Made by a program: the position numbers and the translations under genes. DNA of 64,000 nucleotides from Ignavibacteriota bacterium (lineage in GTDB: Bacteria; Bacteroidota; Ignavibacteria; UBA10030; UBA6906), in NCBI GenBank assembly GCA_963801355.1, contig CAWDEM010000008.1:1440001-1504000 (forward strand), read 5' to 3'. This document shows positions 16,214 through 54,790 of the stretch, piece after piece (positions within the stretch are counted from its first letter, which is position 1; each line of letters begins with the position of its first letter). The notes under the pieces were generated by a model. It worked only from the letters and a program-made list of their open reading frames with translations. It searched no databases and had not been told where the DNA came from.

Positions 16214-16365
16214 GGCCCGCACTTCCCTCTTTGCGCAACACTGCAGGGTCTTCGAGAGGCGCATTCCCCCCTGAACAGTCAAAGCCGCGATAACCTGGTC
16301 TTTGCGGGGGAATCGCAGCCCAACCCACTCGCCTGCATAGGGGATCTTGTGATTCACGATGGCAT
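16214..16365 (+). repeat. Dispersed non-coding repeat, copy A
   Basis: 36 nt (16225-60) identical to 54619-54; colinear with copies C and B up to GTGATTCACGATGGCAT. Confidence 0.9.
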
Positions 16366-16553
16366 AGGGGTGTGCGACTGCTCGGAAGACCCCGACGGCA
16401 AGACTGAGGGTGAAACCCGCGGAAGAGAAGGGAGTGCAGATGGAGGCAAAGTGCACGTGCGCTTCCAGGTCAGGCGCGGGAGACCCCGCATTCGACCCAT
16501 GTACGCTTGGCGGCAATATGGTGTTCTAATGCAAGAAAGTCAAACGAAGCGGT

Positions 16554-16583
16554 CCGAAAGCGTTCTCACCGAAAGCGTTCTCA
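16554..16583. repeat. Tandem 15-bp duplication CCGAAAGCGTTCTCA
   Basis: Two adjacent exact copies. Confidence 0.9.
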
Positions 16584-16681
16584 CACATGTGCAATGAAAT
16601 CGAGGCGTTATTGGAAACCAGCGACAAATCCCTGCTGGCACCATTGGCCGTCAGATGATGGTGCAGCGTTCACGAAATCAA

Positions 16682-18790
16682 TCATCTGACGAGGAGCATC
16701 CGCTTCGTCGATACAAAACTCTGGCGTGAGCCTGTCGAAGGGTCCCCGGCGCTCATTCGACAGAAGTACACTCCACTCGACAGCCCGTCCGCATCAAACT
16801 CCATCGAATAGCTGCCCGCCTCCTTCTTTTCATCCATCAAGACTCTCACTTCCCTCCCAAGCATATCATACACGACCAGCCTTACCCAACTGGCTACTGG
16901 CAGCTGACTGCTGACCACTGTCTTTGGATTGAACGGGTTCGGGTAGTTCTGCAACAGGGCGAAGTCGCCGGGACTTTCTATCCCATCGGCCTCCACACCG
17001 GTGATCATCTCAGAGAGGGGTCGCATCCAGATTCCGGAGCCGCCGGTACCGACCAGGAGTCTTGTGCTGGTGGTGAAAAGTGTCCGCAGGTCAGAGGGAG
17101 TGAGACCGGTACCGATGTTGGTCCATGAGGTTCCGCCGTTAGTCGTCATGCGAATGCCGTAGGATGACGCCCCCGCGAACAGCGTCGTTCCACTGGTTGC
17201 GAGCACTGTTACATTCGGACCCAATCCCGAGGTGAGCGCTGACCAATTCGTCCCGTTGTTCGTTGACTTGAAGAGACCGCCGCCGTACGTCCCGGCGTAG
17301 ATGTCGGATCCACAGAGCGCAAGGGCGCGGATTTTCCTGACCGTGAGCCCCGTGTTCACCGGATTCCAGCTCGACCCGTTGTCTGTCGAGCGGAAGACAC
17401 CGCCGGTGTCAGCGCCCAAGAATATGTCCGCTCCTCGTGCGAGCAGTGCCTGAATTGTGTTATCGTTGAGACCAGCATTCGCAGCAGTCCAGGCATTCCC
17501 ATTATCGCTGGACCTGTACAGGCCAGAGCTCTGAGTTCCCGCAAACAGCAAGCCGTCTTTTGACGCGAGCGAATAGACCGTGTGTTCACCGATGCCGGAA
17601 TTCCGCGCCTCCCATGTCATGCCGTTGTCGGTCGAAACAAACACTCCTTTGAGATAGGAGCCTGCCCAAAGGTTAGTCTCTTTGCGGGCGAGAGCATACG
17701 TTGCCCACGGTTCGTTCCCTGGATCGGCTGGAGACCAGCTAGCGCCGTCATCGGTCGATCGATGAATACCGCCGATGTAAGAACCGGCTATGAGAGTTGT
17801 GCCACTCTGCACGAAGGAAAAAACACTAAGATTCGGGATCCCCGTCGATGACCGTCGCCATGTCGCTGCATTGTCGGTAGACCGGTATATCCCGCCGGAT
17901 TGAATCGCGACAAGCAACGCTCCACTCGTGGCAGCGAATGCCTGAACATAGACCCCCCTGAATGGCATGCCTGTATTCGCTTGCGTCCAGTTCGTACCAC
18001 TGTCTGTTGAACGATAGGGACCATTCCCGGTGCCTGCAAGAAGATCCGTCCCGACGGTCGTCAACGCAAACACGTTGAGTATAGCCAGTCCTGTATTCCT
18101 TGGTGACCAGCTCGCCCCGTTGTTCGTCGTCCGGAAGATGCCTCCGCCATAGGTTCCAACGAAGATCGAGGTTCCAACGGGCAGGATCGACCGCACCCAG
18201 ACAGTTGTCAATCCCGTGCTTCTCTGCTCCCAATGAGAGCCGTTATCGGTAGAGACAAACACGCCTCCATACCTCGTGCCTGCAAGCAGGATCGAACCCG
18301 ACACACCGAGGGCTTCGACTGAATCACTGGTCAAGCCGTTGTTGACCGGGGCCCACGAGGCACCATTGTCGGTTGATTTGTGCACTCCTCCGCCTTCAGT
18401 ACCCGCGAAGACGTTCTCACCGAGCTCTGCAAGCACTTTGACGGTGGTGTTGGTCAAGCCGGTGTTTGAGGCGCTCCAAGTGGTGCCGTCGTTGGTCGAT
18501 CGGAACAACCCTGCGGCAGTCCCTGCGAGAAGATACCCGCCTGATCGCTTCAATGACCAGATATTGAGACTCGTCAGTCCGGAACTTGCACCCATCCAGG
18601 TGACCCCATTGTCTGTTGAACGATAGACACCAGACTGATAGGTCCCAACATAGACATTCGACCCGTCGACTGTCAGACACCAGCAGGTGCCGCCGTACAC
18701 ACCGGCGCTCTGGGTCCAGCCCGCTGCAGCCTGCCCGCACGGCAGAGCAAATGCAGCCAGAATCAGGAGAGATTTCGCACTGTTCCGCAT
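16682..18790 (-). CDS. T9SS-sorted BNR/Asp-box repeat beta-propeller protein, paralogous to 3429..5525
   Basis: Signal peptide; repeats ending GVYRSTDNGxTW; FALLQNYPNPFNPKT...TKRMLLVR. Confidence 0.9.
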   Translation of the reverse strand: MRNSAKSLLILAAFALPCGQAAAGWTQSAGVYGGTCWCLTVDGSNVYVGTYQSGVYRSTDNGVTWMGASSGLTSLNIWSLKRSGGYLLAGTAAGLFRSTNDGTTWSASNTGLTNTTVKVLAELGENVFAGTEGGGVHKSTDNGASWAPVNNGLTSDSVEALGVSGSILLAGTRYGGVFVSTDNGSHWEQRSTGLTTVWVRSILPVGTSIFVGTYGGGIFRTTNNGASWSPRNTGLAILNVFALTTVGTDLLAGTGNGPYRSTDSGTNWTQANTGMPFRGVYVQAFAATSGALLVAIQSGGIYRSTDNAATWRRSSTGIPNLSVFSFVQSGTTLIAGSYIGGIHRSTDDGASWSPADPGNEPWATYALARKETNLWAGSYLKGVFVSTDNGMTWEARNSGIGEHTVYSLASKDGLLFAGTQSSGLYRSSDNGNAWTAANAGLNDNTIQALLARGADIFLGADTGGVFRSTDNGSSWNPVNTGLTVRKIRALALCGSDIYAGTYGGGLFKSTNNGTNWSALTSGLGPNVTVLATSGTTLFAGASSYGIRMTTNGGTSWTNIGTGLTPSDLRTLFTTSTRLLVGTGGSGIWMRPLSEMITGVEADGIESPGDFALLQNYPNPFNPKTVVSSQLPVASWVRLVVYDMLGREVRVLMDEKKEAGSYSMEFDADGLSSGVYFCRMSAGDPSTGSRQSFVSTKRMLLVR

Positions 18791-19056
18791 AGGTTCTCCT
18801 CTCGTGTCATTTCGTGCTCAGAGATGACGGCAATATAGCGTGTGTGGGTGACTTTTTCCAACTATCACATTCCGTTCATATAATAGTAGTGATGATGCAA
18901 CTCAACCAGAACAGCACTCCTGCACACAGCACCTCGTGTCTTCTCCGGTTCACCTGGCTACGGCATCTATTGCTGCTCCCCTGATGCGGTTGCTGACTAT
19001 CACCCAACGCGACACATTCACATCGACGAGGGACAGGACTCCGTGGCAGGCGCCGC

Positions 19057-21009
19057 TCAGAACGAATACCGAAGGCCAACCCGCAATCGCCACCTCGACA
19101 GCAAGGGTTCCGGAACCAGAGGGGACGTTCTCGGCGCCCATTGGAACCCAGGAAAGCCGACGCGGATGGTCCGGAGTACGGGGACGACGTTGTTCGGAAC
19201 CGTCTGAACCAGTCCCCAGGACGCATTCAGAAGATTGAGTACGTTCAGCAATTCTGCACTGACTTCGAGCCGGCGGCTCCCGGCCAACGGCACGCATTGC
19301 GCAATGCGCATGTCCAGTTGATGTATCCAGGGAGTCCGCGCACCGTTCCTCTCTGCTAACCGTCCACGGTGCGTGTTGAGGTACTCGTCTTTTGCGATGA
19401 AATTGAAAAGCTCCGCATAGTCCGAAATGTTAGGATCGTCGTAAAAGAGCCGTTCTTCGGATCCACGATAAAGCATGATTTCCGTTCTTTGGCCCGGAAT
19501 GTAGATAAGATCGTTGAGCGATTCGCCATCCCCATTCAAGTCGCCTTCATACACGTATGAATACGGCGTGCCTGAGATTCCGGTATAGACCATGCCGAAT
19601 GTCGTCGGAAAACCGGGGAACCACTCGTGCTGGTAGGATAACGCCGCAGTGATGCGATGACTCCTGTCAAAGGCGGAGAAGTCTATTGTCGGATCGTTCG
19701 GTTGAACGGCGGGATTGTACCGCCACTGGTCATAGGCATTGTCCCATGTGCCGCTGTTAATATCCTTCGAGCTGCCAGTACCGTACGCCAGGCTGGCAAA
19801 AAGACCGTTACCGGCCGGACGGCGTTGGATCTGAATCGTGTGAAATGTCGTGACCCCGCCAGAGGCGTTCGCCATGAGCATGGCGTCAGTAAACCGGTCA
19901 TCGCTCTTCTTGAAGATCACCCTTTCATATCCACTCCCAGGTGTCGGCATATACTGGGCTGCATACTTCATGGTGTCTATAGGCCTGAGGTTGATGTTTC
20001 TGAACACCACGCCGTTGAGTGTCCGGGAAAACACCGATTCGAACGATGCAACAATATTCCATGGCAACGCAAGGTCCCCCGCAAGAGTCCAGCGCACCTC
20101 CTGCGGAAGGACGAAGTCCGGGGTGATCGTGACAATTTCCATCGTCTCCCGCAGACGGTTGGCAGCTCCGGGCACCGGCTGCGCCGATGGATCGGCGACG
20201 AACTTCGGCGCAAAGGCCGATTCTTTGATATGCACATAGTCCAAGCCTGTGTGGTCATACAGATTGTCGATCCATGCATAGGGAATGTGTCCGGTAAACA
20301 CCCCCACCCCACCCCGCACCTGTACCGAATGATCGGGCTTCGGATCGATCTTGAATCCGATTCGCGGAGACAGCATGACGCGTGTGCCGGGGACCCGCGT
20401 GGTCGAGAGATCGTATCCCTCGGGCAAAAATGCTTCGTGAACGGTGGGGTTGTCCTTCGGTCGGTCGGGAAACACAGGAACATCCGCACGAATCCCCAGG
20501 GACACCGAGAGGACGGGAGAGAGCGTCAATTCGTCCTGCAGGAACGCATCCACGCGCGCATTCTCGTATGATCTGAAAAAGAGCGCTGCTCTCACTTGTG
20601 TACCGAATCCAACATGCGAGATTCTGAGAGTGTACGGACCGCCGACACGGACGCCGGCAATGAGGTAGTGTCCGTCGTCTCCTGCGGCGACTCTGTACGT
20701 GGTACCCGTCGGTTCATACAGGAGTTCAATGTGTGCGCGCGGTATCCCTGATCCATCGGCGGCATAGACGTTGCCCTGCAGAAACGCCGAGCTGGAAGTT
20801 TGGCTCTGGAGAAGGACGGGAGTGAGGAGGATGATCAGCAGGATCTGGTAACGGGAAGGGACACGGAATGAACTATGGCAATGATGAATTGCCGCACTTG
20901 AGATTTGCTGCAGAATGCGTTGTAGATACGTCTTCGGGCCATCGGTGGTTTCTGCATCACGGTCGGCCAGCGCGGTACTTGCCCATCTCAGTTTCGACTT
21001 TTTTTCCAT
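19057..21009 (-). pseudogene. Oar-type TonB-dependent receptor with a large in-frame internal deletion
   Basis: Carboxypeptidase-regulatory-like N-domain (GVRVGGPYTLRISHVGF) joined directly to late barrel strands (QDE...SLGIRADVP, SPRIGF, GDLNGDG..NDLIYIP, ERNGARTPW, VGLRYSF); no plug region. Confidence 0.75.
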
Positions 21010-21019
21010 TTCCTTGCCA

Positions 21020-21397
21020 CTACCGGGAGATATACCCTCCGCCCGGGTCCAGCTTATAGCGAATCATAACCGCTTTTGCCCACTGCCTGTAAGCCTCTGG
21101 GGTTTCCTGATCGTAGAACTCGATCTTTATCAGCGCGTCAGCCCCAGCCGCTTTGGCAGATTTTTTCATGTCTTCGAGGAGCATGTCTTTCGAGGTGACT
21201 TTCCCGATACCCTCTGCTTCCACATAGCCGATCTCAACGTACTGCCAAAGGATAGCGGAGAGATCGTCAACGATGGACAAATACTGCGTTGGAGGATATT
21301 CTGTATCGTCGAAGCGCACGACCTGCGCCGAATGGCATCCAGAGAGAAAAAGGAGAAGAAACGCTAGGGCAAAGAGCCTTGATTCCACATCAAACAT
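21020..21397 (-). CDS. Small lipoprotein, YbjQ-like fold
   Basis: Lipobox FLSG-C; YVEIGYVEAEG...MKKSAKAAGADALI. Confidence 0.65.
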   Translation of the reverse strand: MFDVESRLFALAFLLLFLSGCHSAQVVRFDDTEYPPTQYLSIVDDLSAILWQYVEIGYVEAEGIGKVTSKDMLLEDMKKSAKAAGADALIKIEFYDQETPEAYRQWAKAVMIRYKLDPGGGYISR

Positions 21398-21552
21398 CTC
21401 AGGAATCCAACAATGTTTTCGTAAGGGACACCAATACTTGCGATCGCGGTTCAATGCACCAGCCCACGTGGAGCGCAACAGCAAAATATGAAGGGGGATC
21501 TGGATAGTCAATTATTGCGGGCATTGGGGTCGCGTGTTACCGCGGGAGGCGC

Positions 21553-22593
21553 CTACCGCGTGAACACCACCGCCCCGGCCGTGAAGCCCGCCGGCGGACT
21601 GCTCCCGGCGTACGTCTCCACCTTGAGTCGGTTGCCCGAGAGCACTTGCGCCATCAGACCGCCACCCCCCGGCGACCCGCCCAGTAGGTTCTGCGCGAAC
21701 CCGTAGACCACCATGCCCTGCGACGTGCTGACATCAGCGGGATCCGGCGCAAGTGCGTCGACACTGAAGAGTCCGGCGACCGAGAGCGTCCCGCCAATGG
21801 AAATCCGCACCGAGGTGGGTTCAAACATGTCGTACACGATCGAAAGCTGTTTTGTCCCGGCACTCTGGACGACACTGGACTCGCCGTCGGGGAGCCCCTC
21901 CAGGAACCAGTTTCCCACCAGCCTGCCGGGAATGTCGTAGTCGATCCTCCCGTCCTTGTCGGGGCTGTTCCGGCGGTTTCTTGCGTACAGGGAATCACGC
22001 AGCGGGCGCGGGAAGTAGCCGTAGGCAGCCACGATGTGCAGCATCTTCGCGGGATAGCGCTCCGGCCTCGCGAATCCGGTCCGCGTCACTTCGGTGTTCA
22101 CCACCTCGAAATCCACAGCGTTGGACGCCGGACTGGTGGTGGCGATCGGCATTCCCGCGGTCAACCTCTGGCCCGCCTTGAGCCCCGGCATCACGAGTAT
22201 GTCGTACATCAAGAACGAGAAGGTCTCGGTCATCTTGACGTCGATCCCGCCTTCATTGGTGATCGCGTTCGGGGGGTATATGTTCATCAAAATGCCGTCG
22301 CCGGGCGCGTACACGGTCCGCATCGTGTCCTTATCTCCCGGGCGGCGGTTGGAAGGGTCGACGTAGTAGAAGACGACATGACCGGTCGGCAGCGTGTGAT
22401 CTGGGGGGTAGAGGTTCCCCAGGGGAGTCGTGGCCACGAGGTCCGACAGCTTGAGAGGGGAGTGGGTAAAAACACCGGGCCCTGTCAGCCCGGTATCGAC
22501 TGACAGGTCCACCGGGCTTGAATCGTTCTTGTGGCAGTCAAGGGCCAAGCAGTAAGGGAGAAGCTTGCAGATGACACGAATCCAGTCCTTCAT
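21553..22593 (-). CDS. Hypothetical exported or lipoprotein with an M23-like beta-hairpin region
   Basis: 346-aa GC-rich ORF with RBS; TVYAPGDG, GQRLTAGMPIAT, DGRIDYDIPGRLVGNWF. Confidence 0.65.
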   Translation of the reverse strand: MKDWIRVICKLLPYCLALDCHKNDSSPVDLSVDTGLTGPGVFTHSPLKLSDLVATTPLGNLYPPDHTLPTGHVVFYYVDPSNRRPGDKDTMRTVYAPGDGILMNIYPPNAITNEGGIDVKMTETFSFLMYDILVMPGLKAGQRLTAGMPIATTSPASNAVDFEVVNTEVTRTGFARPERYPAKMLHIVAAYGYFPRPLRDSLYARNRRNSPDKDGRIDYDIPGRLVGNWFLEGLPDGESSVVQSAGTKQLSIVYDMFEPTSVRISIGGTLSVAGLFSVDALAPDPADVSTSQGMVVYGFAQNLLGGSPGGGGLMAQVLSGNRLKVETYAGSSPPAGFTAGAVVFTR

Positions 22594-23108
22594 GGCCAGC
22601 GCCTCTTCACAATCTCATCTGGGTCAAATATAGCCAATCCGGACTGTTCTCGCAACTTTGGACTGTGCACCAACACCGGCGGCAAAGAAAAAGAAGTCTC
22701 GGCGTCGAAGAAGTGAAAGATGGACGGCTTGATTTCGCTGCGAACGACATCTTGACGACGGACAGCGTCCTCAGGGCTGCTTTCTAAAGCAAGATCTCAG
22801 GACTGTAGAGGTCAGATGGAAGAAGTCCCCCACAGGATGAATTCCACCAGATCCTCCCTATTTCTCCCCCGGAGGGGCCATCTCACACATCACCTGCATT
22901 CCAATAGGTGTTGAGGGTATTCTGTCCAAACGCACGATGGCCTGTCCATACTTCGTATCGAGTCGTTCAAGCCGGTCTTCTGTGCGAAAATCTCGCGGAC
23001 CGACATAGGGAGAAATTGAAAAGTACTAGATCGAGTTACGCGATGATCGATTCCGGGCCGGACATTTGGTGTGTCGCCCGCACGGAACAATATATGTATT
23101 CAGTGGAA

Positions 23109-26345
<3,237 letters not shown>

Positions 26346-26388
26346 TCACTGCTCGAGAAATACTTCGGCAAACGAAGAGTCTGGTTCC

Positions 26389-44385: not shown

Positions 44386-44529
44386 TAGAACGAGCAAAAC
44401 GACTTTTGGGTTCGATTGCCCGCCGCGCTCTGGCGTGAGAATGTGCTCTCGTTGCATCCTCTTGGCTTCCGCTCTACCGCGTTACAAAGTGGTTCTTGTG
44501 GCTTCGCCGCCTTGGTCACAGAGGCTTCC

Positions 44530-44565
44530 TAAATCGGTTACTTAAACGATTACGCAATCGATGCC
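44530..44565. promoter_or_regulatory. Three tandem 12-bp LacI-like operator boxes
   Basis: TAAATCGGTTAC, TTAAACGATTAC, GCAATCGATGCC: CG-centred pseudo-palindromes at the predicted transcription start. Confidence 0.6.
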
Positions 44566-44567
44566 GT

Positions 44568-44596
44568 AATATATTGCATCCTTTTTCGTTTGTCAA
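44568..44596 (-). promoter_or_regulatory. Promoter of the pectin locus
   Basis: Minus strand TTGACA-17 bp-TATATT. Confidence 0.75.
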
Positions 44597-44605
44597 GAGG
44601 CCGAA

Positions 44606-44634
44606 TTGACTATCCAGAGAGCCGTGGCTATATT
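44606..44634 (+). promoter_or_regulatory. Divergent promoter for the DUF362 gene
   Basis: TTGACT-17 bp-TATATT. Confidence 0.65.
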
Positions 44635-44751
44635 GGGGCATCAAGCCATGTGCCTGACCTGTACTGAGGATTCTGGCAACATCTATTTCGGAGGGCTCCC
44701 CCACAAGGGTAGCTACGGCTCATCGAGGGGACTTCGGACAAGGAGGAATCA

Positions 44752-46749
44752 ATGTTTTCAAAAATCAGACGACTGGTAATGAAACCGTTCACTGTGTGCC
44801 CCCGAACTGGTAGAATAACCGGACTTGAAATAGAAAAAAGAAAATCTGTGTGGCTTTGGATTGTTGTTGGTCTGGCCTCTGCCATTTGGGTTCTCATCCG
44901 TGTTGTACCCAAGCCCAGCCGTGCGACTTATCCTTGCCAAAGGGTGGCTCAGCCGCTGGCCGCCGGCTTTGTTGCCTGGTTGTTGGGATTGGCCGGATCC
45001 ACCTTGATCATTGGCCGGGCCCGTCGTCTGTTTCAAAAACAACGGTACGTAGTGGGGGCGATCTGTCTTACAGCGGCGGTCTTGCTTTGCTTTGGCACCT
45101 TGAGTGATACACGTGATGTTGCCGCGTCAGCCGAAATCTTTGTCCCCACCGATCCGGCTAACAGTCCTGTAGGTACCGGCAAAGGGATTCATCCCGGACG
45201 CGTCGTGTGGGTCTATGACAGCCTGCTCAGTGATCAAGGCAGCACAAGTGGTTGGTGGTGGGAGGATCGACGCACTGATCCAGAGGTAGCTCAGCGGATG
45301 ATGACGCAGGCGCTGCTCAACCTCACCGGCATTGACAATTCGGCTGCGGCATGGGATTCCCTCTTCAAGTACTTTAACCGAACGCGTTACGGCCAAAACG
45401 ATGTGGGCTACCAGGCTGGTGACAAGATCGCCATCAAGGTCAACAACATTTTCTCCCGTTCCTACGTATGGACCACCAGCCAGGACGGCCGGCCCTGTCC
45501 GCAAATGGTTCATGCCCTGCTCTGGCAACTGGTGAACAAAGCCGGCGTTCCTGAAGCAGACATCACCATCTATGACTGCGTCTTCTATCATGGCGACCCG
45601 GTTTACAGTTACAACCACAAAGACTTTCCAAGCGTGCGCTGGGCTGAAGGCGATGCTACGGATCGCAGTGGATATGAATCCGGTCCTGGTAGTGATCCTG
45701 GTACCCGGGAAAAGGTAGTGCCCGATACTAACTGTGTGGTCCATTATGGCGATCCGGGCATCGTTCCCGGCAGCGGTACAGTCTGCCTGCCCACGGTTGT
45801 CTCAGAGGCCAAGTATCTCATCAACGTCGCGTTGGCGCGCCCCCATGAACTGGCAGGCATCACCTGCTGCGCAAAGAACTTCTTCGGCTCGGTCTGGCAT
45901 CCCAATCCTCCCCCGGGGAACGATTATTATTACCATGGCTGGTGCCCGTTCTTTATGCATAAGGCAGTCGCCGCCCTCAATTTCTCCGCCGACATTCCCA
46001 TGCGCTCCATGGGATCCTACAATGCCCTGGTCGATCTCATGGGCCACAAAGACCTGGGCGGCAAGACCTTTCTGTTCATAGGTGAATGTATTCGCCCTAA
46101 GTACTGGTCGGCTCCACCCTTCAATCGCCGACCCGCATCGAGTTTGTTCATGAGCCAGGATATAGTCGCCATTGAGTCGGTCCTGCTGGACTTTTTGCAG
46201 TCTGCGGGAGTCGTGCCCGCAGGTACGCCTGAGAATTATCTCCACGAAGCGGCCCAGGCCGACAATCCGCCTTCGGGCACTGTCTACGACCCGGAAAACG
46301 ACGGCATCCCCTTGAAGAGCCTGGGCGTACATGAGCACTGGAACAACTCTACGGACAAGCAGTACAGCCGCAATCTGGGTATCGGTGAAGGTATTGAGCT
46401 GATCAAAATATTGAATCCTACCCCAACTGCTGTTGAGCCTAGCAATGGTGATATCCCAGCCACTTTCACGCTTTTTGCGAACTATCCCAATCCCTTTAAT
46501 CCATCAACCACCATTTGCTACTCACTACCGACTGCTGCCGATATCAGGTTGAACATCTACAATGTGACGGGAGAAAAGGTGCGTACGCTCATCAATCAGC
46601 ATCAATCTGCAGGCACCTTTCATATTAGTTGGAATGGGCGCAATGATAACGACGTACGTGTAGCTTCCGGTATCTTTATATACAGAATGGAAAGAATTAC
46701 AGGCAGAGAAACAGACAGCCAATCACATCAAATGTTGCTGCTCAAATGA
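44752..46749 (+). CDS. DUF362-domain protein with T9SS/FlgD-like C-terminal domain
   Basis: KPSRATYPCQR between TM helices; GKGIHPGRVVW, GDKIAIKVN, GITCCAKNFFG, GVHEHWNN; ANYPNPFNPST and WNGRND. Confidence 0.8.
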   Translation: MFSKIRRLVMKPFTVCPRTGRITGLEIEKRKSVWLWIVVGLASAIWVLIRVVPKPSRATYPCQRVAQPLAAGFVAWLLGLAGSTLIIGRARRLFQKQRYVVGAICLTAAVLLCFGTLSDTRDVAASAEIFVPTDPANSPVGTGKGIHPGRVVWVYDSLLSDQGSTSGWWWEDRRTDPEVAQRMMTQALLNLTGIDNSAAAWDSLFKYFNRTRYGQNDVGYQAGDKIAIKVNNIFSRSYVWTTSQDGRPCPQMVHALLWQLVNKAGVPEADITIYDCVFYHGDPVYSYNHKDFPSVRWAEGDATDRSGYESGPGSDPGTREKVVPDTNCVVHYGDPGIVPGSGTVCLPTVVSEAKYLINVALARPHELAGITCCAKNFFGSVWHPNPPPGNDYYYHGWCPFFMHKAVAALNFSADIPMRSMGSYNALVDLMGHKDLGGKTFLFIGECIRPKYWSAPPFNRRPASSLFMSQDIVAIESVLLDFLQSAGVVPAGTPENYLHEAAQADNPPSGTVYDPENDGIPLKSLGVHEHWNNSTDKQYSRNLGIGEGIELIKILNPTPTAVEPSNGDIPATFTLFANYPNPFNPSTTICYSLPTAADIRLNIYNVTGEKVRTLINQHQSAGTFHISWNGRNDNDVRVASGIFIYRMERITGRETDSQSHQMLLLK

Positions 46750-46950
46750 CAAGGTAGCTGTCGTGGGCGGGTCCCATCACTACTTGTCCCTCGTCAAGAT
46801 GTCACCCAGGTTCGAATTGGCGAATTGGCACTGAATTCGATACTTTGTCCTGTCCCGAAACCAATGATGAAACCCCTAGATGCTCAGATCTTTCCTGTCG
46901 TATTGCCTTCTTTTCTTAAAGATCAGAAACCAACTTCATTGGGAGATCCT

Positions 46951-47071
46951 TTGTCGAGGCGGCGATAACTTGAATTTCATACTGGAATCTTAGTCCAACC
47001 CACGCACCCGCGCAGGGGATCTCGTGATTCACGATGGCATTTTGCCCCGGACGGGATTTTGAAGAGAGACA
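46951..47071 (+). repeat. Dispersed repeat copy B, ending in a transposon-type right inverted repeat
   Basis: Shares CCAACCCAC...AGGGGATCT.GTGATTCACGATGGCAT with copy A; its last 24 nt match the reverse complement of 48392-48415 at 19/24. Confidence 0.85.
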
Positions 47072-47254
47072 GCTCACCGCAGGGCCTCGTCTGATTTTAT
47101 GGCGTAGTCGCATACAGCTGATTGTTGTCTGTTGCCTGTGAATCAGATATTCTGTAAGTACATCACACCAACAGACTTCGCGATTCAGGCGGACAAAAGA
47201 GCAACCGAGGTGCTTCATTACTATGGGCATTGATATAGGAAATTGTCAATTTGC

Positions 47255-47317
47255 GCCCAACAGCGGTATGCAGCGGACGCGCCACAAGAATGGCGCCATA
47301 GAATTTCAACGTTAAGT
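47255..47317 (+). mobile_element. attC-like site, apparently chimeric
   Basis: GCCCAAC (RYYYAAC) ... TGCAGCGGAC, hairpin GCGCCA-CAAGAA-TGGCGC, ... GTTAAGT (GTTRRRY); inner L boxes do not pair. Confidence 0.5.
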
Positions 47318-47353
47318 GGCAAACGCGATCTGTTCCAACATATCAATTCGCAC

Positions 47354-47590
47354 ATGACTAGTACTAGGCTTCTTGGACTCTTCCGTCTGTTTCGTTTTGA
47401 GCTTCCGTTTTCGGCCGGCGTTTGCGTCGTCTTGGGTCAGTTCCTTGCATTCGATTCAATCCCGCCGCCTCAAGAGATCGTGCTGGGTTTTTTGAGCGTG
47501 TTCTTCATTTCAGCCACAGCACTCATACTTAACGACTACTTCGACCTGGAGATAGACCGAATCAACGCGCCACACAGACCAATCCCCTCG
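47354..47590 (+). pseudogene. 5' fragment of a UbiA-family prenyltransferase
   Basis: ILNDYFDLEIDRINAPHRPIPS first Asp-rich motif, after which similarity stops. Confidence 0.8.
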
Positions 47591-47749
47591 GACTTGCCTT
47601 TGTGGATCTGGCTGATGAACTGGAGAGTATACTCGGCATGCGTGTCGACCTCGTCTCTGGCGGAGCCCTGAACCAGAGAGGCTACGATTCCATGTCCGCG
47701 GATTTTCGCTATGTCTAGGCGCAACGCGCAACTCCTTATTCCATATTGA
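47587..47749 (+). pseudogene. 3' fragment of an MNT (MntA-like) antitoxin plus the first codons of a HEPN/DUF86 toxin
   Basis: LGLAFVDLADELESILGMRVDLVSGGAL...DFRYV* overlapping MSRRNAQLLI (ATG at 47711). Confidence 0.7.
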
Positions 47750-47779
47750 AATCGGTCCAATAAACGTGGTTCTTGTCGC

Positions 47780-48286
47780 ATGTCCATTCTAGAGAAAAAC
47801 ATTGAATCTATTGAAGTTCTCGCAGCTCAGAAGGAGAAAGAAAACTATCGATTTAGAATTCTGCTTAAACAACGTGATTCAACGCGAATCGATCGACTTG
47901 CCCATCGTATCAATTCAGAGGTTGTAAATGAGATTGACTGCACTGCATGTGGGAACTGCTGTGTCACGCTGAGACCGGTCGTTACTGACAAAGAGATCGC
48001 AAAATTATCCAGACTGCTAAACATATCAAAGGAGCTCTTTGCTGACCAGTACACCGAACATGTTGCAGACGAGAACGTGAGGATGCTCAAGGATACTCCT
48101 TGCACCTTCCTCGCCAATAAGAAGTGTACAGTGTACGACGCCAGGCCTCATGATTGCCGATCTTTTCCACACATCGAAAAAGACGGCTTCACATTCAGAA
48201 CACTGGAGATGGTTGAGAACTGTGGAATTTGTCCAATCATCTATAACGTGCTGGAGCGATTGAAGAAAGAGTTGCATTTTCGTTAG
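47780..48286 (+). CDS. YkgJ/UPF0153 cysteine-cluster protein
   Basis: CTACGNCC, PCTFL...CTVYDARPHDCRSFP, CGICP. Confidence 0.9.
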   Translation: MSILEKNIESIEVLAAQKEKENYRFRILLKQRDSTRIDRLAHRINSEVVNEIDCTACGNCCVTLRPVVTDKEIAKLSRLLNISKELFADQYTEHVADENVRMLKDTPCTFLANKKCTVYDARPHDCRSFPHIEKDGFTFRTLEMVENCGICPIIYNVLERLKKELHFR

Positions 48287-48391
48287 CACATCGGAGGACA
48301 TACTTCCAGTTTGCGGACGCCTCCCCGGTAGGTGTGATTGAGGCGAGCCCTGAGGGCTGCCACACTGCGGCTCGATGGGATCCCCGGGGGG

Positions 48392-49723
48392 TGTAGCTCT
48401 TCAATATTCCATCCGCGTCCAACATAGCGAATCCGAGCGACTTTCGCTACTTTGAATTGTGTATCAACCAACCGGACAGAAGCCCAGATGCTCAGTTCCT
48501 TCCTCTCGTTTTGTCTCCGATTCTTCAGATCACGGATTCAGCTTCAGCTGGAGATCATCTTCCTCCGAAAACAGCTCGAAATACTCGCTCGCACGTCCCT
48601 GAGACCCCGACTGCGATCCTCCGACAGATTCTTCTTCAGCACCATGACCAATGTTTTCGGCTCTTGGAAGGAGACGCTGCTGGTCATCAAGCCGGAAACG
48701 GTCATCCGGTGGCACCGGCAAAGCTTCAGATTGCTTTGGAAATGGAAAAGCCGATCAGAAGCGGGCAGACCGAAGATCCCGCAGGCCCAGATCAACCTGA
48801 TCAAGCAGATGGCAAACGAGAATCCCCTCTGGGGCGCCCCCCGGATTCACGGAGAGTTGCTCAAGCCCGGGTTTGATATCTCAGAAGCCACAGTACAACG
48901 ATACATGCCCAAGAGACAGCATAGAACCACCCGGCAACGTTGGAAAATCTTCTTGAAGAACCATTCATCACAAATCGTATCAGTTGATTTCCTCGTCGTC
49001 CCCACAATCACCTTCCGGTTGTTCTACGTTCTGGTCTTCCTATCACACGACAGGCGAAGAATCATCCATTTCAACGTCACGGCCAATCCCACCGCTCACT
49101 GGTGTGCTCAGCAGTTGCGCAACATCTTCTGTGATCATGAGCCACCAAGATTTCTTCTGCGGGATCGTGATGCGAAGTTCGGCGAGATGTTCACCGAGAT
49201 TGTGACCGCGCTTGGTATCGACCCACTGTTGACAGCCTACAGGTCGTCGTGGCAAAATGGATACGCGGAACGACTAATCGGGAGCATAAGGCGCGAATGT
49301 CTCGACCACTTGATTATTCTGAATGAAACACACCTGCGTGAGATTGTGCAGGAATACGTCCGCTACTACAACACGCAACGAACCCACCTGGGGATCGCCA
49401 AGGACTCACCTGAGCCGCGGGAGGTTCAAACCGAAGGGGAGATTGAGAAGATTCCTGTGGTGGGCGGACTGCATCACTATTACTTCCGACGGGCCGCGTA
49501 AGGAACACTCACGAACTGATTACTGCGATGTTGCCCGCGTGGGCTGTGGGGGGATCTACGTCCTTCCTTCGGAAGAAACCGTCCCTCAAGCAAGAATCTC
49601 AACTCCCTTCCCTACTCTGCTGGAAGACAACCCTCTTGAATTCTGTTTACTCCGCTTGAGGACTTCGCTCAACTGAGAGATCGCGGGAGTATTCCGCGTC
49701 GGATGGAATATTGACGAAGGAAA
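48392..49723 (+). mobile_element. IS element (IS481-like) with a degenerate proximal right end
   Basis: Perfect 15-bp IR TCAATATTCCATCCG (48401-15) / CGGATGGAATATTGA (49700-14); left end starts TGT, proximal right end lacks ACA. Confidence 0.75.
48488..49501 (+). CDS. DDE (rve integrase-core) transposase
   Basis: PETVIRWHR, NPLWGAPRIHGEL; catalytic VSVDF, LLRDRD, NGYAERLIGSIRRECLD. Confidence 0.92.
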   Translation: MLSSFLSFCLRFFRSRIQLQLEIIFLRKQLEILARTSLRPRLRSSDRFFFSTMTNVFGSWKETLLVIKPETVIRWHRQSFRLLWKWKSRSEAGRPKIPQAQINLIKQMANENPLWGAPRIHGELLKPGFDISEATVQRYMPKRQHRTTRQRWKIFLKNHSSQIVSVDFLVVPTITFRLFYVLVFLSHDRRRIIHFNVTANPTAHWCAQQLRNIFCDHEPPRFLLRDRDAKFGEMFTEIVTALGIDPLLTAYRSSWQNGYAERLIGSIRRECLDHLIILNETHLREIVQEYVRYYNTQRTHLGIAKDSPEPREVQTEGEIEKIPVVGGLHHYYFRRAA

Positions 49724-49963
49724 CGGCTGTGTAGATGGTGGACATGATTCTGTCGTCCACATTGGGACAGCTCAAACCGTCGTGAGGTTTGATTAGGAAG
49801 TATCCAACCATTGAGATCATTCTAAGCGAAAGACCGCTTTCGAAATCTCGGGTTGGATTGCTCCGGCGTTTGAGAGAAGATTAGCAGCGAATTCCGCGAT
49901 CAAGTCTCAAGACTGACCTTCCAATGGCGAGCTACGCTGTTCTGTGTTCCTTGAACTAACCAC

Positions 49964-49999
49964 TTGACATTGTGCTTGATAAGTGGTAATATCACTACC
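49964..49999 (+). promoter_or_regulatory. Promoter of the AbiE operon with an overlapping short IR
   Basis: TTGACA-17 bp-TAATAT with TG extension; GTGGTA-N7-TACCAC over the -10 box. Confidence 0.5.
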
Positions 50000-50103
50000 A
50001 CAATTCGCGCTGAACGTAAAATTGATCCTGTGCGACATCAGCTTGCCGCACAAAACAATGATGCTGTGGCAATTTGAATATCACCTGACGAACCGAACAT
50101 GAA

Positions 50104-50907
50104 ATGAAAGCAGAGGCATTCTTTTCCAGCCATCCGGTCTTCTCGTTTGCAGAGGCCGTGGCCACCCTGGCCCCCAAAAAGGATCGGCGTGGGATGGTGG
50201 ATCGCCTGAAACATCATGTGAAGAACCACACGCTGAAACAGGTTGCCCGAGGTGTGTACGCCGTCGTTCCACCAGGAGACGACACTGGGAAGTTCCGGCC
50301 GGATCCCTTCCTTGTGGGTGTAGCACTTCGTCCCGATGCAGTGTTCTCCCACCACAGCGCGCTTGAGCTTCTTGGGGCTTCACATTCAGCATGGAATAGC
50401 GTCACCCTCTTCTCAGCGAGACGAAGGACGAGTCTCACGGCTGATGGGATGAAGTTCTCCGTCTTCCAGAATCCTCAACAAATGAATGTCTCGGGCGAAA
50501 CAACGCTCGGAACACGCAGGGTGGAGAGACGGGGCAGGTTTCTGGTGGTCACTGGTCCGGAACGGACTCTCGTGGAGGGATTCCGACGCCCTGAATTGGT
50601 CGGAGGATTTGAGGAACTTGTTACTTCAGCCGCTGGCTTTGCGGTGCTTGATGTCAAGCTTCTCCTGGGAATACTTGAACGGTACCGAACATCTAGGCTC
50701 TGGTCGGCGGTGGGTTGGTTTCTCGAACGGTTCCGAAACGATTTTCATGTGAAAGACGACGTTCTCATGCGATGTGAACGGCAGAGGCCGGGTGCGGCTC
50801 AGTATCTTCAGCGAGACTCGCGGGGCGGCATACTCTTGAGGCGATGGAACCTAATAGTGCCTCAGTCTCTGACGAAGGCAGTGGAGCCGAATGAAGCTCA
50901 GTCTTGA
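50104..50907 (+). CDS. AbiEi-type antitoxin (type IV TA)
   Basis: N-terminal wHTH ending VARGVY; FSHHSALELLG; VTGPERTLVE; overlaps the downstream toxin gene. Confidence 0.82.
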   Translation: MKAEAFFSSHPVFSFAEAVATLAPKKDRRGMVDRLKHHVKNHTLKQVARGVYAVVPPGDDTGKFRPDPFLVGVALRPDAVFSHHSALELLGASHSAWNSVTLFSARRRTSLTADGMKFSVFQNPQQMNVSGETTLGTRRVERRGRFLVVTGPERTLVEGFRRPELVGGFEELVTSAAGFAVLDVKLLLGILERYRTSRLWSAVGWFLERFRNDFHVKDDVLMRCERQRPGAAQYLQRDSRGGILLRRWNLIVPQSLTKAVEPNEAQS

Positions 50908-51862
50908 ATTCCTTGAGCGTTGCTCTGCCGAGACTGGCTTCCAAGTGGCAGCGCTGGAGAAGGTCACCAGGATGGGAGAAATAGCTGGCCACATTGCACG
51001 TCATCCAACGCTGGGTGAGGTTCTGGCACTCAAGGGTGGCACTGCACTCAACTTGTGTTTGGGTGCCCCTACACGACTCTCCGTCGATCTTGACTTCAAC
51101 TACATTGGAAGCGAAACGCGTGAGGGAATGCTGGTCGAACGGCCGAAAGTCCGTAAGGCAATTCTCACGCTCGCTGGCCGACTGGGATATCGCGCGCAGG
51201 AATCGGCAGAAGCATTTTCCGGAGGGAAGATCTACCTATCCTACCGATCAGTCTTGGGACCCCAAGACAGGATCGAGATCGATTTGAATTTCGTGTTCCG
51301 AATTCCTTTTTCCGGAACTCTCGTGCAACGCCTATGGCAGCCGGATGCCCTTGATCAACCCGATGTCCGAATCGTTGGAGTTACGGAACTTCTGATCGGC
51401 AAGCTCTTGGCGCTGCTGGATCGTGGAGCCGCTCGAGATGTGTGGGATGTGGCAAACCTCCCGAAAGCAGCACTACAAGTCGTAAAGTCGGACGAATTCC
51501 GTCGGCATTTCATCGCATTCTCCGCGACGCTCCCACATCCACTGACAACGTATACACAACGCCGGCTCGAGAACCTTGCGACCAACCAAGCACTGACTCA
51601 ACAACTGCTTCCGATGCTCATCAGGAATGAAGCTCCCGATTTGAGCACACTTGTTCCACGGGCTTGGGACGTAATTGCAGATCTCATCAAGGTTGATCCC
51701 GATGAATCCGAGTACATTGCTTCAATTGAACGAGGTGAAATCCGGGTTGAGCTGCTCTTTCCTGACGACCCTCACAAAGCAGAGCTCATTGCACGGCACC
51801 CTGCGATTCAATGGAAAATCAAGAATGTTCGTGACAGACGCGAGCGACAACGCGGGTTGTAG
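50891..51862 (+). CDS. AbiEii/AbiGii nucleotidyltransferase toxin
   Basis: LKGGTALNL, RLSVDLDF, KLLALLDR..ARDVWD. Confidence 0.9.
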   Translation: MKLSLEFLERCSAETGFQVAALEKVTRMGEIAGHIARHPTLGEVLALKGGTALNLCLGAPTRLSVDLDFNYIGSETREGMLVERPKVRKAILTLAGRLGYRAQESAEAFSGGKIYLSYRSVLGPQDRIEIDLNFVFRIPFSGTLVQRLWQPDALDQPDVRIVGVTELLIGKLLALLDRGAARDVWDVANLPKAALQVVKSDEFRRHFIAFSATLPHPLTTYTQRRLENLATNQALTQQLLPMLIRNEAPDLSTLVPRAWDVIADLIKVDPDESEYIASIERGEIRVELLFPDDPHKAELIARHPAIQWKIKNVRDRRERQRGL

Positions 51863-51916
51863 GTGTAGCAAATAGCGGGGGCAGGAACACTTCTAGACTT
51901 ACAACTTTCGAGCCGA

Positions 51917-51949
51917 TTGTCGAGGTGGCGATAACCTAGTCTTTGCAGG
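51917..51949 (+). repeat. Short partial copy D of the dispersed repeat
   Basis: TTGTCGAGG.GGCGATAAC shared with B; GCGATAACCT.GTCTTTGC.GG shared with A. Confidence 0.65.
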
Positions 51950-52070
51950 AATATCGCTACCTACAGCTCAACATCCTCTTCACTCATCTTGGTAAGACGG
52001 GCTTCCGTTTCTGCCCGGGTCTTCCGATTCATAGCGGTGTCTTGAACCAGGTTCTGCGCATCCGCGCGGG

Positions 52071-54185
52071 TCACTTGAATTCCCCAACCAACCGCCGGAA
52101 ATCCTCATCTTCTCGGTATTCGTTGAAGTCCGGGTCATTAGTGATCGAGCCATGGAAAACCTTGCCACCCTCAAAGGCTAACTTCAGACACTGAAGCATT
52201 TCGCTCTTCTCTCCAAGCGCAGCGAGTGTGCACGCAGCGTTGTAGTGTGCGTGGCTGTCTGTCGGGTCGGAATTGCGTATCTTCCCCACTTCAGCCAAGG
52301 CCTTCTCGCGCTCGCCCAGCCGGGCGTACGCGTTTGCCACCCTGCTCCGCGTAATGGTATCATCGGGATTCAGCTCGAGCTTCCGGATCCCGATTTCGAG
52401 AGATTTGCGCCGTGCGGCGTCCGACGAGGCATAGTTACCCATTTCCCGATATACCATGTCCAGATGGACCCAGGGTTCTTCGCTGTAGGGTTTCAGTTCA
52501 CTGGCCCGCACAAAGCAGCTAATTGCGGCATCATGCTCTCCTGTTCGATCGAACACCATACCCAGCCAGAGGAAGCCTTCGTAGAAATCCGGTCTTTCCC
52601 GGATAATCGATTCGAAGGAACGCTTCGCTTCGTCGAAGCGCCTCTGATGAACGTAGACCGTAGCAAGAGCATGGCGTGCCTCGAATGATCCAGGATCCCG
52701 AGCCAGCGACTTTTCACTCACCTCGATAGTCCTACCGAGCCATTTTGGGTCTCCGTCATACCATGCGAAGATGTGGGCACACGCTTGGGCGAGTCCTGAG
52801 AGAGCTCCCACAAACCCAGCATCAATCACGAGCGCTCGCTCAAACATCTGCACCGCCTGCTCCGCATTCTTGCGGCCGCGTCGAGAAATGAGATCTTTAC
52901 CGCGCATGTAGAAGTCATATGCTCTCAGGTCATCTGTCGGTCTCTTTGCAAGTGCAGCTTCTTCGGTTTCGGTGAGCGAAAGGCGCAATGCCTCCACAAT
53001 CTTTCGAGCAACGTCCTCCTGAACATCCAGAATATCTTCTAGCAGCCTGTCAAATCGCTCCGCCCAGATTTGGTACCCCGTGCGCACATCAGACAACTGG
53101 GCCGTGATACGGATCCGATTCCCGGCTTTGCGCACGCTTCCTTCTAGGACATGACTTGTACGAAGCGCCTCTCCCAGCTTCCGGGTGTTGATGTCCTTGT
53201 TGCGAAATGGCAGGACGTCGCTGCGGGGTACGACCTTGAGGCTCGTGATCCTTGAAAGATCCGTGATGATGTCTTCAGTGATGCCGGCGCAGAAATAATC
53301 GGTGTCACGTTCGGAGCTCATGTTCTCGAAGTAAAGAACGGCGATACTCTTTTCCGCTACGGGGTTGGCGACGGGAGCCTGTGATCCTTTTAGCTCCCCA
53401 ACAAGTGTCCCCGCTGAAGGGATCCTCTTGGCGGGATCTTTTTCGAGGAGCTTGGACACCAGAATCTGTAGGCGGTCTGGGATATCGGGGCGATGCTGCT
53501 GGAGGGGAGGTGGTGTACTGTTCAGGATTTCGTACATGAGTGCGGCTTCGTGTTCTCCGTGGAAAGGGAGAGTGCCAGAAAGCATTTCGTACAGGAGCAC
53601 GCCGACCGACCAGAGATCCGTTCGCTGATCTACTTCTTCTCCCCGGACCTGCTCAGGCGACATATAGGCAAACGTCCCGAGTGTTGATCCAGATTTCGTC
53701 AGTCCGGTCAGTCCGGCGAGTTTTGCCAGTCCGAAATCGAGGATCTTCGCAGTCCCGTCAGTGCCAAGAAGGATATTTGCAGGTTTGATGTCCCGGTGAA
53801 CGATCCCTCTTGCGTGAGCGCTTGCCAGTCCTTGTGTGACCTGAAGTGCAAGAGCCAGGACATCCTCAATCCTCATAGGACCCCCCGCGATTTTCTCCTT
53901 CAGCGTCTCCCCCTCGTAGAGGTCCATGACAATGAACATTGTGCCGTCATCGGTCCGGTCGACATCGTGGATGGTGCAGATGTTGTTGTGCTGCAGGGCT
54001 GACGCTGCCTGGGCTTCAGTAATAAATCGCTCTCTGGCCACGCTGTCTTTCGTAAGGTCAGGAGGGAGGAATTTGAGTGCAACGGCGCGCTTGAGGCGGG
54101 TGTCCTCGGCTTTGTATACAACGCCCATGCCGCCTTCGCCAAGCTTCTCGAGGATCTTGTAGTGGGAAACAGTCTTGGCGATCAT
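52071..54185 (-). CDS. Hanks-type Ser/Thr kinase with TolB-N-like domain and TPR repeats
   Basis: LGEGGMGVVY, VALK, HRDIKPAN, DFG, YMSPE; SIAVLYFEN...VLEGSVRK; C-terminal TPRs. Confidence 0.93.
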   Translation of the reverse strand: MIAKTVSHYKILEKLGEGGMGVVYKAEDTRLKRAVALKFLPPDLTKDSVARERFITEAQAASALQHNNICTIHDVDRTDDGTMFIVMDLYEGETLKEKIAGGPMRIEDVLALALQVTQGLASAHARGIVHRDIKPANILLGTDGTAKILDFGLAKLAGLTGLTKSGSTLGTFAYMSPEQVRGEEVDQRTDLWSVGVLLYEMLSGTLPFHGEHEAALMYEILNSTPPPLQQHRPDIPDRLQILVSKLLEKDPAKRIPSAGTLVGELKGSQAPVANPVAEKSIAVLYFENMSSERDTDYFCAGITEDIITDLSRITSLKVVPRSDVLPFRNKDINTRKLGEALRTSHVLEGSVRKAGNRIRITAQLSDVRTGYQIWAERFDRLLEDILDVQEDVARKIVEALRLSLTETEEAALAKRPTDDLRAYDFYMRGKDLISRRGRKNAEQAVQMFERALVIDAGFVGALSGLAQACAHIFAWYDGDPKWLGRTIEVSEKSLARDPGSFEARHALATVYVHQRRFDEAKRSFESIIRERPDFYEGFLWLGMVFDRTGEHDAAISCFVRASELKPYSEEPWVHLDMVYREMGNYASSDAARRKSLEIGIRKLELNPDDTITRSRVANAYARLGEREKALAEVGKIRNSDPTDSHAHYNAACTLAALGEKSEMLQCLKLAFEGGKVFHGSITNDPDFNEYREDEDFRRLVGEFK

Positions 54186-54281
54186 GTGGATCTCCACCTG
54201 CGTGAATGATCCCGACGGTACGAAGAATCAGCAGTACGGCGGCAATATAGGGGAGAGGAGTGCGAGAGTCAACTATAGAAA

Positions 54282-54313
54282 AGAAGGTCAAGAGCACAGA
54301 AGGTCAAGAGCAC
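54282..54313. repeat. Tandem 16-bp duplication AGAAGGTCAAGAGCAC
   Basis: Two adjacent exact copies. Confidence 0.9.
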
Positions 54314-54600
54314 TGAACGATCGTGTATTGTTAAAACAACACCCTTGAACAACAACCCTCTCCAGGGAGCTTCACAACCGGAACAATCCACGATGGTCGA
54401 TGGACGCTCAACAATCCACAGCCGGCGGCAAAGAAAAGGATGTCGAGGCGTCGAAGAGATGAGTGTTGGAGGGTAATATCTGGTGAAGGAGGACTTCAGC
54501 GGAGTACTTCGATCGACGCAATAGCAGGCATCCTTTCTGACACATTCTCGGCCAACCGAGAAAAGCAGAAGCAGTGGTCTGCCTTTGTAAGACTCCAAAG

Positions 54601-54790
54601 TAGCGGGGGCCCGCTCTCCCCTCTTTGCGCAACACTGCAGGGTCTTCGAGAGGCTCATTCACCCATGAACAGTCAAAGCTGCAATAACCTCTTTTTTTGT
54701 GCGGGAATCTCAGCCCAACCCACTCACCCGCATAGGGGATTTCGTGATCTATGGTGGAGTTCTGCCCCGGATGGAATTTGTAGAGGGACA
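54601..54790 (+). repeat. Dispersed repeat copy C (longest): TAGCGGGGG core through a right inverted repeat ending ACA
   Basis: Colinear with A and B; 54768-90 reverse complement TGTCCCTCTACAAATTCCATCCG resembles IRL TGTAGCTCTTCAATATTCCATCCG. Confidence 0.9.

Follow-up and report, generated by a model that had tools for sequence, protein, structure and literature searches.

Co-oriented non-coding repeats joining a tRNA-Met end to an IS481-like terminus in an Ignavibacteriota genome

What kind of event leaves related non-coding segments, all on one strand, in which the likeness of a recombination site runs into the end of a transposable element? This question is raised by a 64,000-nt stretch of an Ignavibacteriota bacterium (GCA_963801355.1; source genome G000, 4.8 Mb, 100% complete), namely G000:C8:1440001-1504000, hereafter the window. 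An earlier note, made from the letters of the window, had described four such segments, A to D, and had proposed a standardized "module end", in which an attachment arm for a recombinase is fused to a transposase-binding end so that cargo could be captured by either enzyme in trans. We followed these segments in the window, in the whole genome, in 100 other genomes (101 with G000; G001, G002, and G004 belong to the same genus), and in metagenomes; L-numbered loci are stretches fetched from these genomes or from metagenomes. We lean towards reading the repeats as non-coding fossil junctions of recombinase-less elements that accreted at a tRNA-Met(CAT) gene, which we take from its sequence features to be of the initiator type (tRNA-fMet), and that were reworked by the ends of an IS481-type insertion sequence (IS).

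All four segments were present on the + strand, and their kinship was confirmed by BLASTN, by a repeat search, and by nhmmer, with D weak by itself. In BLASTN against the whole genome, A and C were 87% identical over 141 nt (E 6e-43), B and C 80% over 89 nt (E 8e-15), and B and A 84% over 57 nt (E 2e-10). The repeat search returned a three-copy family (16301-16362, 46976-47037 at 76%, and 54696-54757 at 82%) and a 90-nt pair (16214-16303 and 54608-54697, 89%). The 36-nt exact match that had been reported between A and C (CCCTCTTTGC...GAGAGGC) was read directly in the sequence, and the shared 10-mer, TAGCGGGGGC, was found where it had been placed, at 54601, the start of C, and at 51873, 44 nt before D. 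With an nhmmer profile built from seven copies, A, B, and C gave strong matches and D only E 0.67. Segment D alone returned nothing except itself in BLASTN over the whole genome at E<=0.01; it was tied to the family via a congener copy, L009, which was 87% identical to D over 62 nt and 87% identical to B over 114 nt, and in which a D-like left part runs on into a B-like right part.

A full unit, such as C, is approximately 190 nt long and consists of a 10-nt core, an arm of about 130 nt, and an IS481-like right end of about 50 nt. In C, these parts are the core, a 10-nt copy of the tRNA-fMet 3' end (54601..54610, +); a non-coding, genus-specific arm of the type that we term U (54611..54740, +), which was 83-92% identical to six other full-length copies and 75% to an internally deleted copy in L031; and the IS481-like right terminal region (54741..54790, +), ending in GAGGGACA, where B ends in GAGAGACA. 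Every complete copy starts at the same nucleotide (TAGCGGGGGC) and stops at the IS end, and the pairwise identity of eight near-complete U copies was 74-94% (28 pairs). Copy A (16214..16365, +; U-type arm; nhmmer model positions 9-158, E 3e-44) is truncated on both sides: its core is without the first 8 nt, and the IS end, the last ~35 nt, is missing. Copy D (51873..51952, +) consists of the core, with 14 nt in common with the tRNA (...AGGA), a D-type arm, and the shared S segment (51917-51949), and lacks everything to the right of that segment; its ortholog lies at 19043-19184 of G004 (82.5%).

The ~140-nt body of the repeat had no further copy in the 4.8-Mb genome beyond the family, as judged by BLASTN. 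Matches to the repeat were found in 6 of the 101 genomes; the body was restricted to the same genus (G001, G002, and G004), and two sister-genus genomes matched the IS end only. A 20-mer scan returned one genome contig, that of G001, and eight metagenome stretches, six of them true copies; the remaining two (L024 and L030) were chance matches that had only the 20-mer in common. That all segments lie at module boundaries, as had been supposed, held in part: synteny with G004 ends at 16143, 70 nt before A, and a gene that is 90 nt from D in G004 is 3.56 kb away in the window.

The left edge of the unit coincides with the end of a tRNA gene. Read as its reverse complement, the core TAGCGGGGGC equals the final 10 nt of the tRNA-fMet gene (CGCGGGG...CCTGCCCCCGCTAC), which lies at C8:1515889-1515962 on the minus strand, 11.9 kb past the window. 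The 10-mer has eight copies in the genome, on both strands and with one inside the tRNA gene, and four of them fall on the + strand of one 68-kb stretch, where 0.057 were expected (Poisson 4e-7); for the 8-mer, five were observed in this stretch against 0.40 expected (6e-5). In G004:C5 1-70000, eight cores (8-mer TAGCGGGG) were found on the + strand and none on the - strand; they span 12.5 to 47.2 kb, and the last is the tRNA-Met of G004. Two genomes, G000 and its congener G004, thus have arrays of co-oriented cores 3' of the tRNA gene, and the att-like (attachment-like) core that had been surmised at the left edge is borne out. The distance from a conserved PadR block to the tRNA gene is ~60 kb in G000 and ~35 kb in G004, of which only ~1 kb is orthologous, and almost no DNA between the cores of the arrays is common to both congeners.

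The sequences to the left of the core fall into classes T0 to T4. T0, which consists of the genuine tRNA terminator and ~110 nt of the tRNA downstream flank, was found at both tRNA genes, at 8686-8736 of the window, in L007, L008, L012, L026, and L031, and at G004 28735 and 32800. T1, the hairpin CCCCTACAAC...GTTGTAGGGG, occurs in L029, at G004 19069, and in degenerate form at copy D; a further hairpin class, T2, in L028, at G004 17556, and partly at G004 12495; and another, T4, at C8:1510734. T3 is a weak terminator-like hairpin just outside the core of C (54569..54584), on the - strand, that of the tRNA. The flank in L025 is a promoter region outside these classes. Within the window, 8686..8736 (+), behind the gene at 8752..9468 (-), is a T0 hairpin copy followed by 9 nt of the tRNA 3' end (GTAGCGGGG) and no arm; it was 87-94% identical to the left flank of the congener copies and grouped with real tRNA flanks. 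At 51847..51872 (+), a degenerate T1 hairpin remnant overlaps the 3' end of an AbiEii gene and matches the T1 flank of G004 over 23 nt. When terminators were scored on the strand of the tRNA, T0 and T4 were strong (13- and 11-pair stems) and T3 was weak (6-pair stem with a T-rich tail); T1 appeared by eye as a hairpin followed by a T run.

On the right side of the core, four classes were distinguished: the tRNA itself, U (A, C, and others), D, and V. T0 adjoins the tRNA, U arms (L007, L008, L012, L026, and L031), and D arms (G004 28735 and 32800); T1 adjoins U (L029) and D (G004 19069 and window copy D); and T2 adjoins U (L028 and G004 17556) and V (G004 12495). The core is the exact point at which left flanks and right arms have been reshuffled. 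In seven of seven flank contexts, identity begins at the 3' end of the tRNA. Such a constant boundary in seven unrelated contexts, together with flanks that are mostly terminators on the strand of the tRNA, would be expected from serial integration, provided that every arriving element restores the tRNA end and carries a terminator of its own, and not from random breakage. The arms U and V are related, with 2-7 of 500 shuffles scoring at least as high, and D differs in its first 50 nt. The possibility that the arm starts with a degenerate left IS repeat was rejected, as 19-485 of 500 shuffles reached the score in 21 comparisons.

Three further observations concern the surroundings of the tRNA gene. 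Its downstream flank (T0 in G004, e.g., L019:12760-12790, in several copies) contains GGACTTGAACCTGCAACC, an 18-nt second copy of the T-arm region, which may be a trace of another insertion class. Two near-full tRNA-fMet copies lie 5 kb apart in G104 (L064, G104:C169), one of them abutted by a recombinase gene, and G027 (L068, G027:C116) has two extra tandem partial tRNA copies (87%).

The right edge of the unit belongs to a different kind of mobile DNA. IS481-like elements encode an rve-type DDE transposase in a single open reading frame (ORF), have TGT...ACA ends, and give rise to short non-autonomous derivatives in which both ends are retained. A full-length IS of this kind is present at 48392..49720 (+) and encodes a transposase of 349 aa (48452-49501) in one ORF, with the Pfam domains rve_3 (9.5e-13), HTH_32, rve_2, and rve. 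Against NCBIfam, the protein scored 95.6 bits for IS481 (cut-off 224) and 98.4 for IS3 (cut-off 160); since both scores are under the cut-offs, we label the element IS481-like. Its terminal inverted repeats (48398-48415 and 49700-49717) are 18 nt long and 94% complementary, and the genome contains two sister copies (80-82% aa identity) and many fragments and solo ends.

The last ~50 nt of B and C aligned to the right ends of the sister IS copies and to solo ends. Only positions ~141-190 of the nhmmer model matched IS ends; they had 10 other matches in the genome at E<=1, which were IS right ends where examined. The earlier note had seen that the ends of B and C match this DDE element and had taken them for 23-24 nt of its left inverted repeat; the match stands, but it is to the right inverted repeat and extends over ~50 nt. 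Likewise, its statement that the repeat bears no similarity to the 3' region of the IS is correct for the ~140-nt body, for which no matching IS 3' region was found in the genome, and incorrect for the last ~50 nt. When the 150-nt right flanks of 10 copies and of the IS were compared, only 2 of the 55 pairs were alike, namely L031 with the window IS, and B with L029 (58 nt in common, upstream of an AbiEi gene in L029). Because the right flanks are nearly all unrelated, the IS end is a real mobile or breakage boundary. For the units A, C, and the congener copies, the right flanks were unrelated but the left flank was always the tRNA-end core; with this constant left side, they do not show the unrelated flanks on both sides that mark a miniature IS.

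Copy B differs from these. Its extent had been given as 46951-47071, which is too small, as 46785-46948 is homologous to the left end of the IS. The left part (46785..46948, +) holds the left terminal repeat of the IS, the leader, and ~23 codons of the transposase start, corresponding to the first ~23 after the ATG at 48488; IS positions 104-177 aligned to 46875-46948 at 75% (E 9e-4). The right part (46949..47071, +) holds the S segment, the subterminal region, and the right terminal repeat of the IS ending in ACA. Judged from these alignments, B appears to be a 287-nt internally deleted IS at 46785-47071. The view that the repeats are not simply pieces of the IS accordingly stands for the body, but not for B or for the last ~50 nt of B and C. 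An inverted-repeat search in B at seed 6 gave no pair; the complementarity of the two ends was 18/26 in B (287 nt), 18/26 in L029 (298 nt), and 22/26 in L031 (415 nt). In the metagenome loci L029 and L031, the left IS repeat is followed by a spacer, then by the hairpin, the core, and the U arm, and the right IS repeat closes the unit. The core of L031 is degenerate (CAGCGGGGCC), and this unit occupies the exact place of the full IS in the window. In G004, 17556-19069 has the order core, U (truncated), cargo, left repeat, T1, core; it corresponds to a circular permutation of an L029-type cassette with cargo, which fits the fused-end idea and is no proof of it. No target duplication was apparent by eye at the IS, its two sister copies, B, L029, or L031.

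Other short or rve-type elements were noted nearby and in G004. L018:14723-15203 (G004:C5) is a 480-nt miniature element composed of an IS left end (217 nt, 92%), 144 nt resembling 18846-18991 of the window, and an IS right end (116 nt, 75%). Just to the right of the window, L032:3641-6556 (G000:C8:1507641-1510556) is a second rve-type IS, IS#2, which is interrupted in G000 by a group II intron ORF (RVT_1, GIIM, 462 aa) and has three uninterrupted copies in G004:C5. The G000 copy and two of the G004:C5 copies lie 60-260 nt from a hairpin-plus-core junction.

Candidates for the enzyme acting at the tRNA end were sought in a family-wide survey, in which 49 of 68 genomes had the tRNA gene and 30 loci, each with +-1.5 kb, were retrieved. 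In 9 of these 30 loci, all from other genera, a large serine recombinase gene abuts the tRNA-fMet 3' end; six of the matches were long and three were short remnants, and the proteins had the Pfam domains Resolvase, Recombinase, and Zn_ribbon_recom. Five recombinases examined were only 34-41% identical to that of L061; the large serine recombinase of G019 (L065:203-1915) has 570 aa. Tyrosine recombinases were found at none of the 30 loci by tblastn with the eight of this genome as queries, a search of limited sensitivity, and an IS481-like transposase at one (tblastn). The recombinase ORFs of L061 (L061:2-1441), L043, L047, L049, and L054 run into the antisense of the tRNA-fMet gene, and the last residues of the recombinase (...VAGTGLEPATFGL) are encoded by the tRNA sequence itself.

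In the reading that we favor, site-specific integrative elements would have been inserted one after another at the tRNA end, probably by a large serine recombinase, by analogy with the other genera. Each insertion would have rebuilt the tRNA end, brought its own terminator, and pushed the older junctions outward, and the elements would later have lost their recombinase, as in accretion of the cis-mobilizable element (CIME) type. IS481-type ends would then have transposed or caused adjacent rearrangements, giving the sharp right-hand boundary, and the same activity may have yielded B and the elements with an IS repeat at either end. Today, the copies are probably inert scars; rearrangements may still break at them, and the resident transposase may be able to act on B. 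The fused "module end" thus survives as anatomy, with a tRNA core and an IS end, but its proposed function is unproven and A and D are truncated; as for dual capture of cargo by either enzyme in trans, nothing shows present activity, and no serine recombinase was found in the genus genomes searched.

Several observations weigh against serial integration. No Resolvase-domain gene was detected in G000, G001-G004, or G031, so that the enzyme is named from other genera only. Remnants of a serine recombinase were likewise not found by tblastn in either array, where only the antisense reading of the tRNA matched, and the prediction that the 3' end of such a gene would lie upstream of the copies failed for every one of them. 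There is no tyrosine recombinase within 70 kb, the nearest being a conserved one ~70 kb away in both genomes. In the recombinase-bearing genera, the tRNA flank is the 3' end of the recombinase gene and not a bare hairpin. A second core was not found within 10-20 kb in G019, G027, or G101; no distal junction was found to show a 10-nt junction repeat left by the recombinase-bearing elements; and 40 kb of G019 did not contain the flank seen in G045, a congener free of the recombinase. Between the genomes compared, no segment gained or lost had two cores as its exact limits; comparisons of G004, L025, and L027 showed different arms at one flank and no clean empty site. Slippage is another route by which a 10-nt repeat could recombine. 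In G031, a truncated IS481-like transposase gene next to the tRNA is immediately followed by T1 and a degenerate core, an arrangement that allows the core region to be native IS 3' sequence. Finally, the arms bear no significant likeness to the rest of the tRNA locus: the alignments had z values of -0.9 to 1.4, and 39-260 of 300 shuffles scored at least as high, so that the idea of decayed tRNA copies was rejected.

The G031 locus leaves room for a plainer account, in which no site-specific recombinase took part and the unit is the 3' non-coding end of a lost IS481-like element with its miniatures. The tRNA-like 10-mer and hairpin would be incidental or once-captured internal sequence, and the varied left flanks would come from illegitimate or short-homology recombination and IS-mediated deletions. 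The IS right end in the last ~50 nt, B as an apparent internal-deletion derivative, the two loci bounded by both IS repeats, the position of T1 and the degenerate core after the stop of the transposase gene in G031, the many IS copies and solo ends in the genome, and the lack of a serine recombinase there are all in keeping with it. However, the ~140-nt body has no counterpart in any IS 3' region of the genome, seven unrelated contexts have their left boundary at one and the same nucleotide, that of the tRNA 3' end, the T0 copies hold ~110 nt of genuine tRNA downstream flank, the arrays of two genomes run in one orientation and lie only 3' of the tRNA, and target duplications were not visible by eye. 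We regard this account as rather unlikely, though it deserves attention. Doubtful to a greater degree is a more precise form of the proposal in the earlier note, an active transposable attP in the shape of a 300-415-nt element with IS481-type ends around a terminator, a tRNA-fMet end, and an arm, which the transposase would plant in any replicon and at which a recombinase acting in trans would stack replicons, often with AbiE modules, beside tRNA-fMet. Although the layout of L029 and L031 is that of such an element, G004 17556-19069 has the form of the expected "inside-out" product, two unrelated AbiE modules follow the right repeat (one in the window and L031, the other in L029), and an intact transposase is present in the window, a serine recombinase was found in none of the five genus genomes searched, G000 included. 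In addition, target duplications were not seen by eye, empty sites were not found, many copies are truncated (A, D, and G004 17556), the L031 core is degenerate, and the arm start has no detectable likeness to a tRNA half-site.

Two further accounts would make the repeat a gene. The first would be a small RNA gene with a tRNA-like 3' end, whose minus-strand transcript would run inward from the IS end and terminate at the hairpins. In keeping with it, a hairpin follows the unit on that strand in most contexts, several scoring as terminators, and conservation within the arm is highest in the first ~45 nt. We hold it very improbable: Rfam gave no match in the window at gathering scores and only chance-level matches, with no tRNA, around C and D at E<=10, hence no credible family; ARAGORN found no tRNA in the window; and no promoter-like site was found in or beside the unit on the minus strand. 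Covariation, which the earlier note had proposed as a means of separating a non-coding RNA from a DNA site, gave no support for RNA structure. In the consensus folds of five copies on the two strands, the covariation terms were penalties (+1.12 and +2.4 kcal/mol), and compensatory changes affected 4 of 48 and 1 of 48 pairs. Moreover, unrelated terminators beside units that are 85-90% identical would require recombination at the boundary anyway. A decayed protein family on the minus strand (frames such as ...NHEIPYAGEWVGLRF...) is scarcely credible. ORFs of 104 and 120 aa do cover B and A, but stops or shifts interrupt the frame in C, L007, L012, and L008, and B and L009 are 87% identical in DNA and ~76% in frame, with no ORF start or end in common. 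A six-frame reading of seven copies gave no conserved ORF.

The closest known frame for serial integration at tRNA-fMet is the decay of integrated elements into CIMEs and their accumulation in tandem at a target gene, overlaid here with IS and miniature-IS activity. In the account of CIMEs in PMC5704250, such arrays likewise have direct repeats of the target end between segments and have lost the integrase. Here, in distinction from them, neither the array nor the rest of the genome yielded an integrase, the repeats measure only 10-14 nt, the arm adjoining the core ends in an IS terminal repeat, and a large serine recombinase is suggested by other genera. For Tn4451/TndX-type elements, the same source describes site-specific integration with very short direct repeats, which the present ones resemble, as they also do in that, in relatives, the recombinase gene stands at the element end beside the target (PMC5704250). 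In its treatment, serine-recombinase integrative elements mostly insert within genes and disrupt them (PMC5704250), whereas the target here is the 3' end of an essential tRNA gene, which is left intact.

Compared with IS481-like and miniature inverted-repeat transposable element-like elements, B, L029, and L031 appear alike in being short forms that keep both ends. They differ in that no target duplications are visible, the NCBIfam scores for IS481 and IS3 are below the cut-offs, the derivatives enclose a tRNA-end copy and a terminator, and the left flank of the common unit is never random. The components are ordinary scars of mobile DNA; the unusual aspects are that tRNA-end core, arm, and IS terminal repeat are consistently fused and that IS-bounded forms exist. 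If serial integration is correct, the locus is a clear case, in a little-studied phylum, of build-up at a tRNA-linked hotspot, in which insertions leave a countable row of tRNA-end copies, the recombinase is lost, and IS ends rework the seams. In this family, large serine recombinases repeatedly target the initiator tRNA gene, which offers natural candidate pairs of attB and recombinase. An attachment site on a transposable cassette, if real, would link two mobility systems; we know of no description of such a link, although our literature searches were not aimed at this exact question.

The cargo between the right end of the IS and copy D is an AbiE pair at 50104..51862 (+), with AbiEi at 50104-50907 and AbiEii at 50891-51862, recognized by PADLOC (2e-64 and 5e-79, respectively) and, for the latter, by Pfam (AbiEii). 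In L031, an AbiEi/AbiEii module as in the window lies to the right of the IS end of the unit (94% over 1176 nt), and in L029 a different AbiE pair follows the unit. The right flank of B (47130-47190 of the window) was 78% identical over 58 nt to the region upstream of AbiEi in L029, a likeness that suggests a putative lost AbiE module beside B.

Around copy C, a 52-nt repeat (22676-22727 and 54422-54473) has 81% identity, and 54381-54497 resembles part of the metagenome locus L028. Between the IS end of C and the stop of an Nramp gene, 54790-54833 (-) encodes a 14-residue fragment of the N-lobe of a Ser/Thr kinase (DPKVGRFVALKFLP), which was 73% like 54063-54106 of the intact kinase gene. Elsewhere in the window, two Sortilin/BNR-repeat proteins with sorting tails of the type IX secretion system are encoded at 3429-5630 and 16682-18790 (-); they contain periodic repeats of ~123 nt (41 aa) and a 54-nt family of 21 copies.

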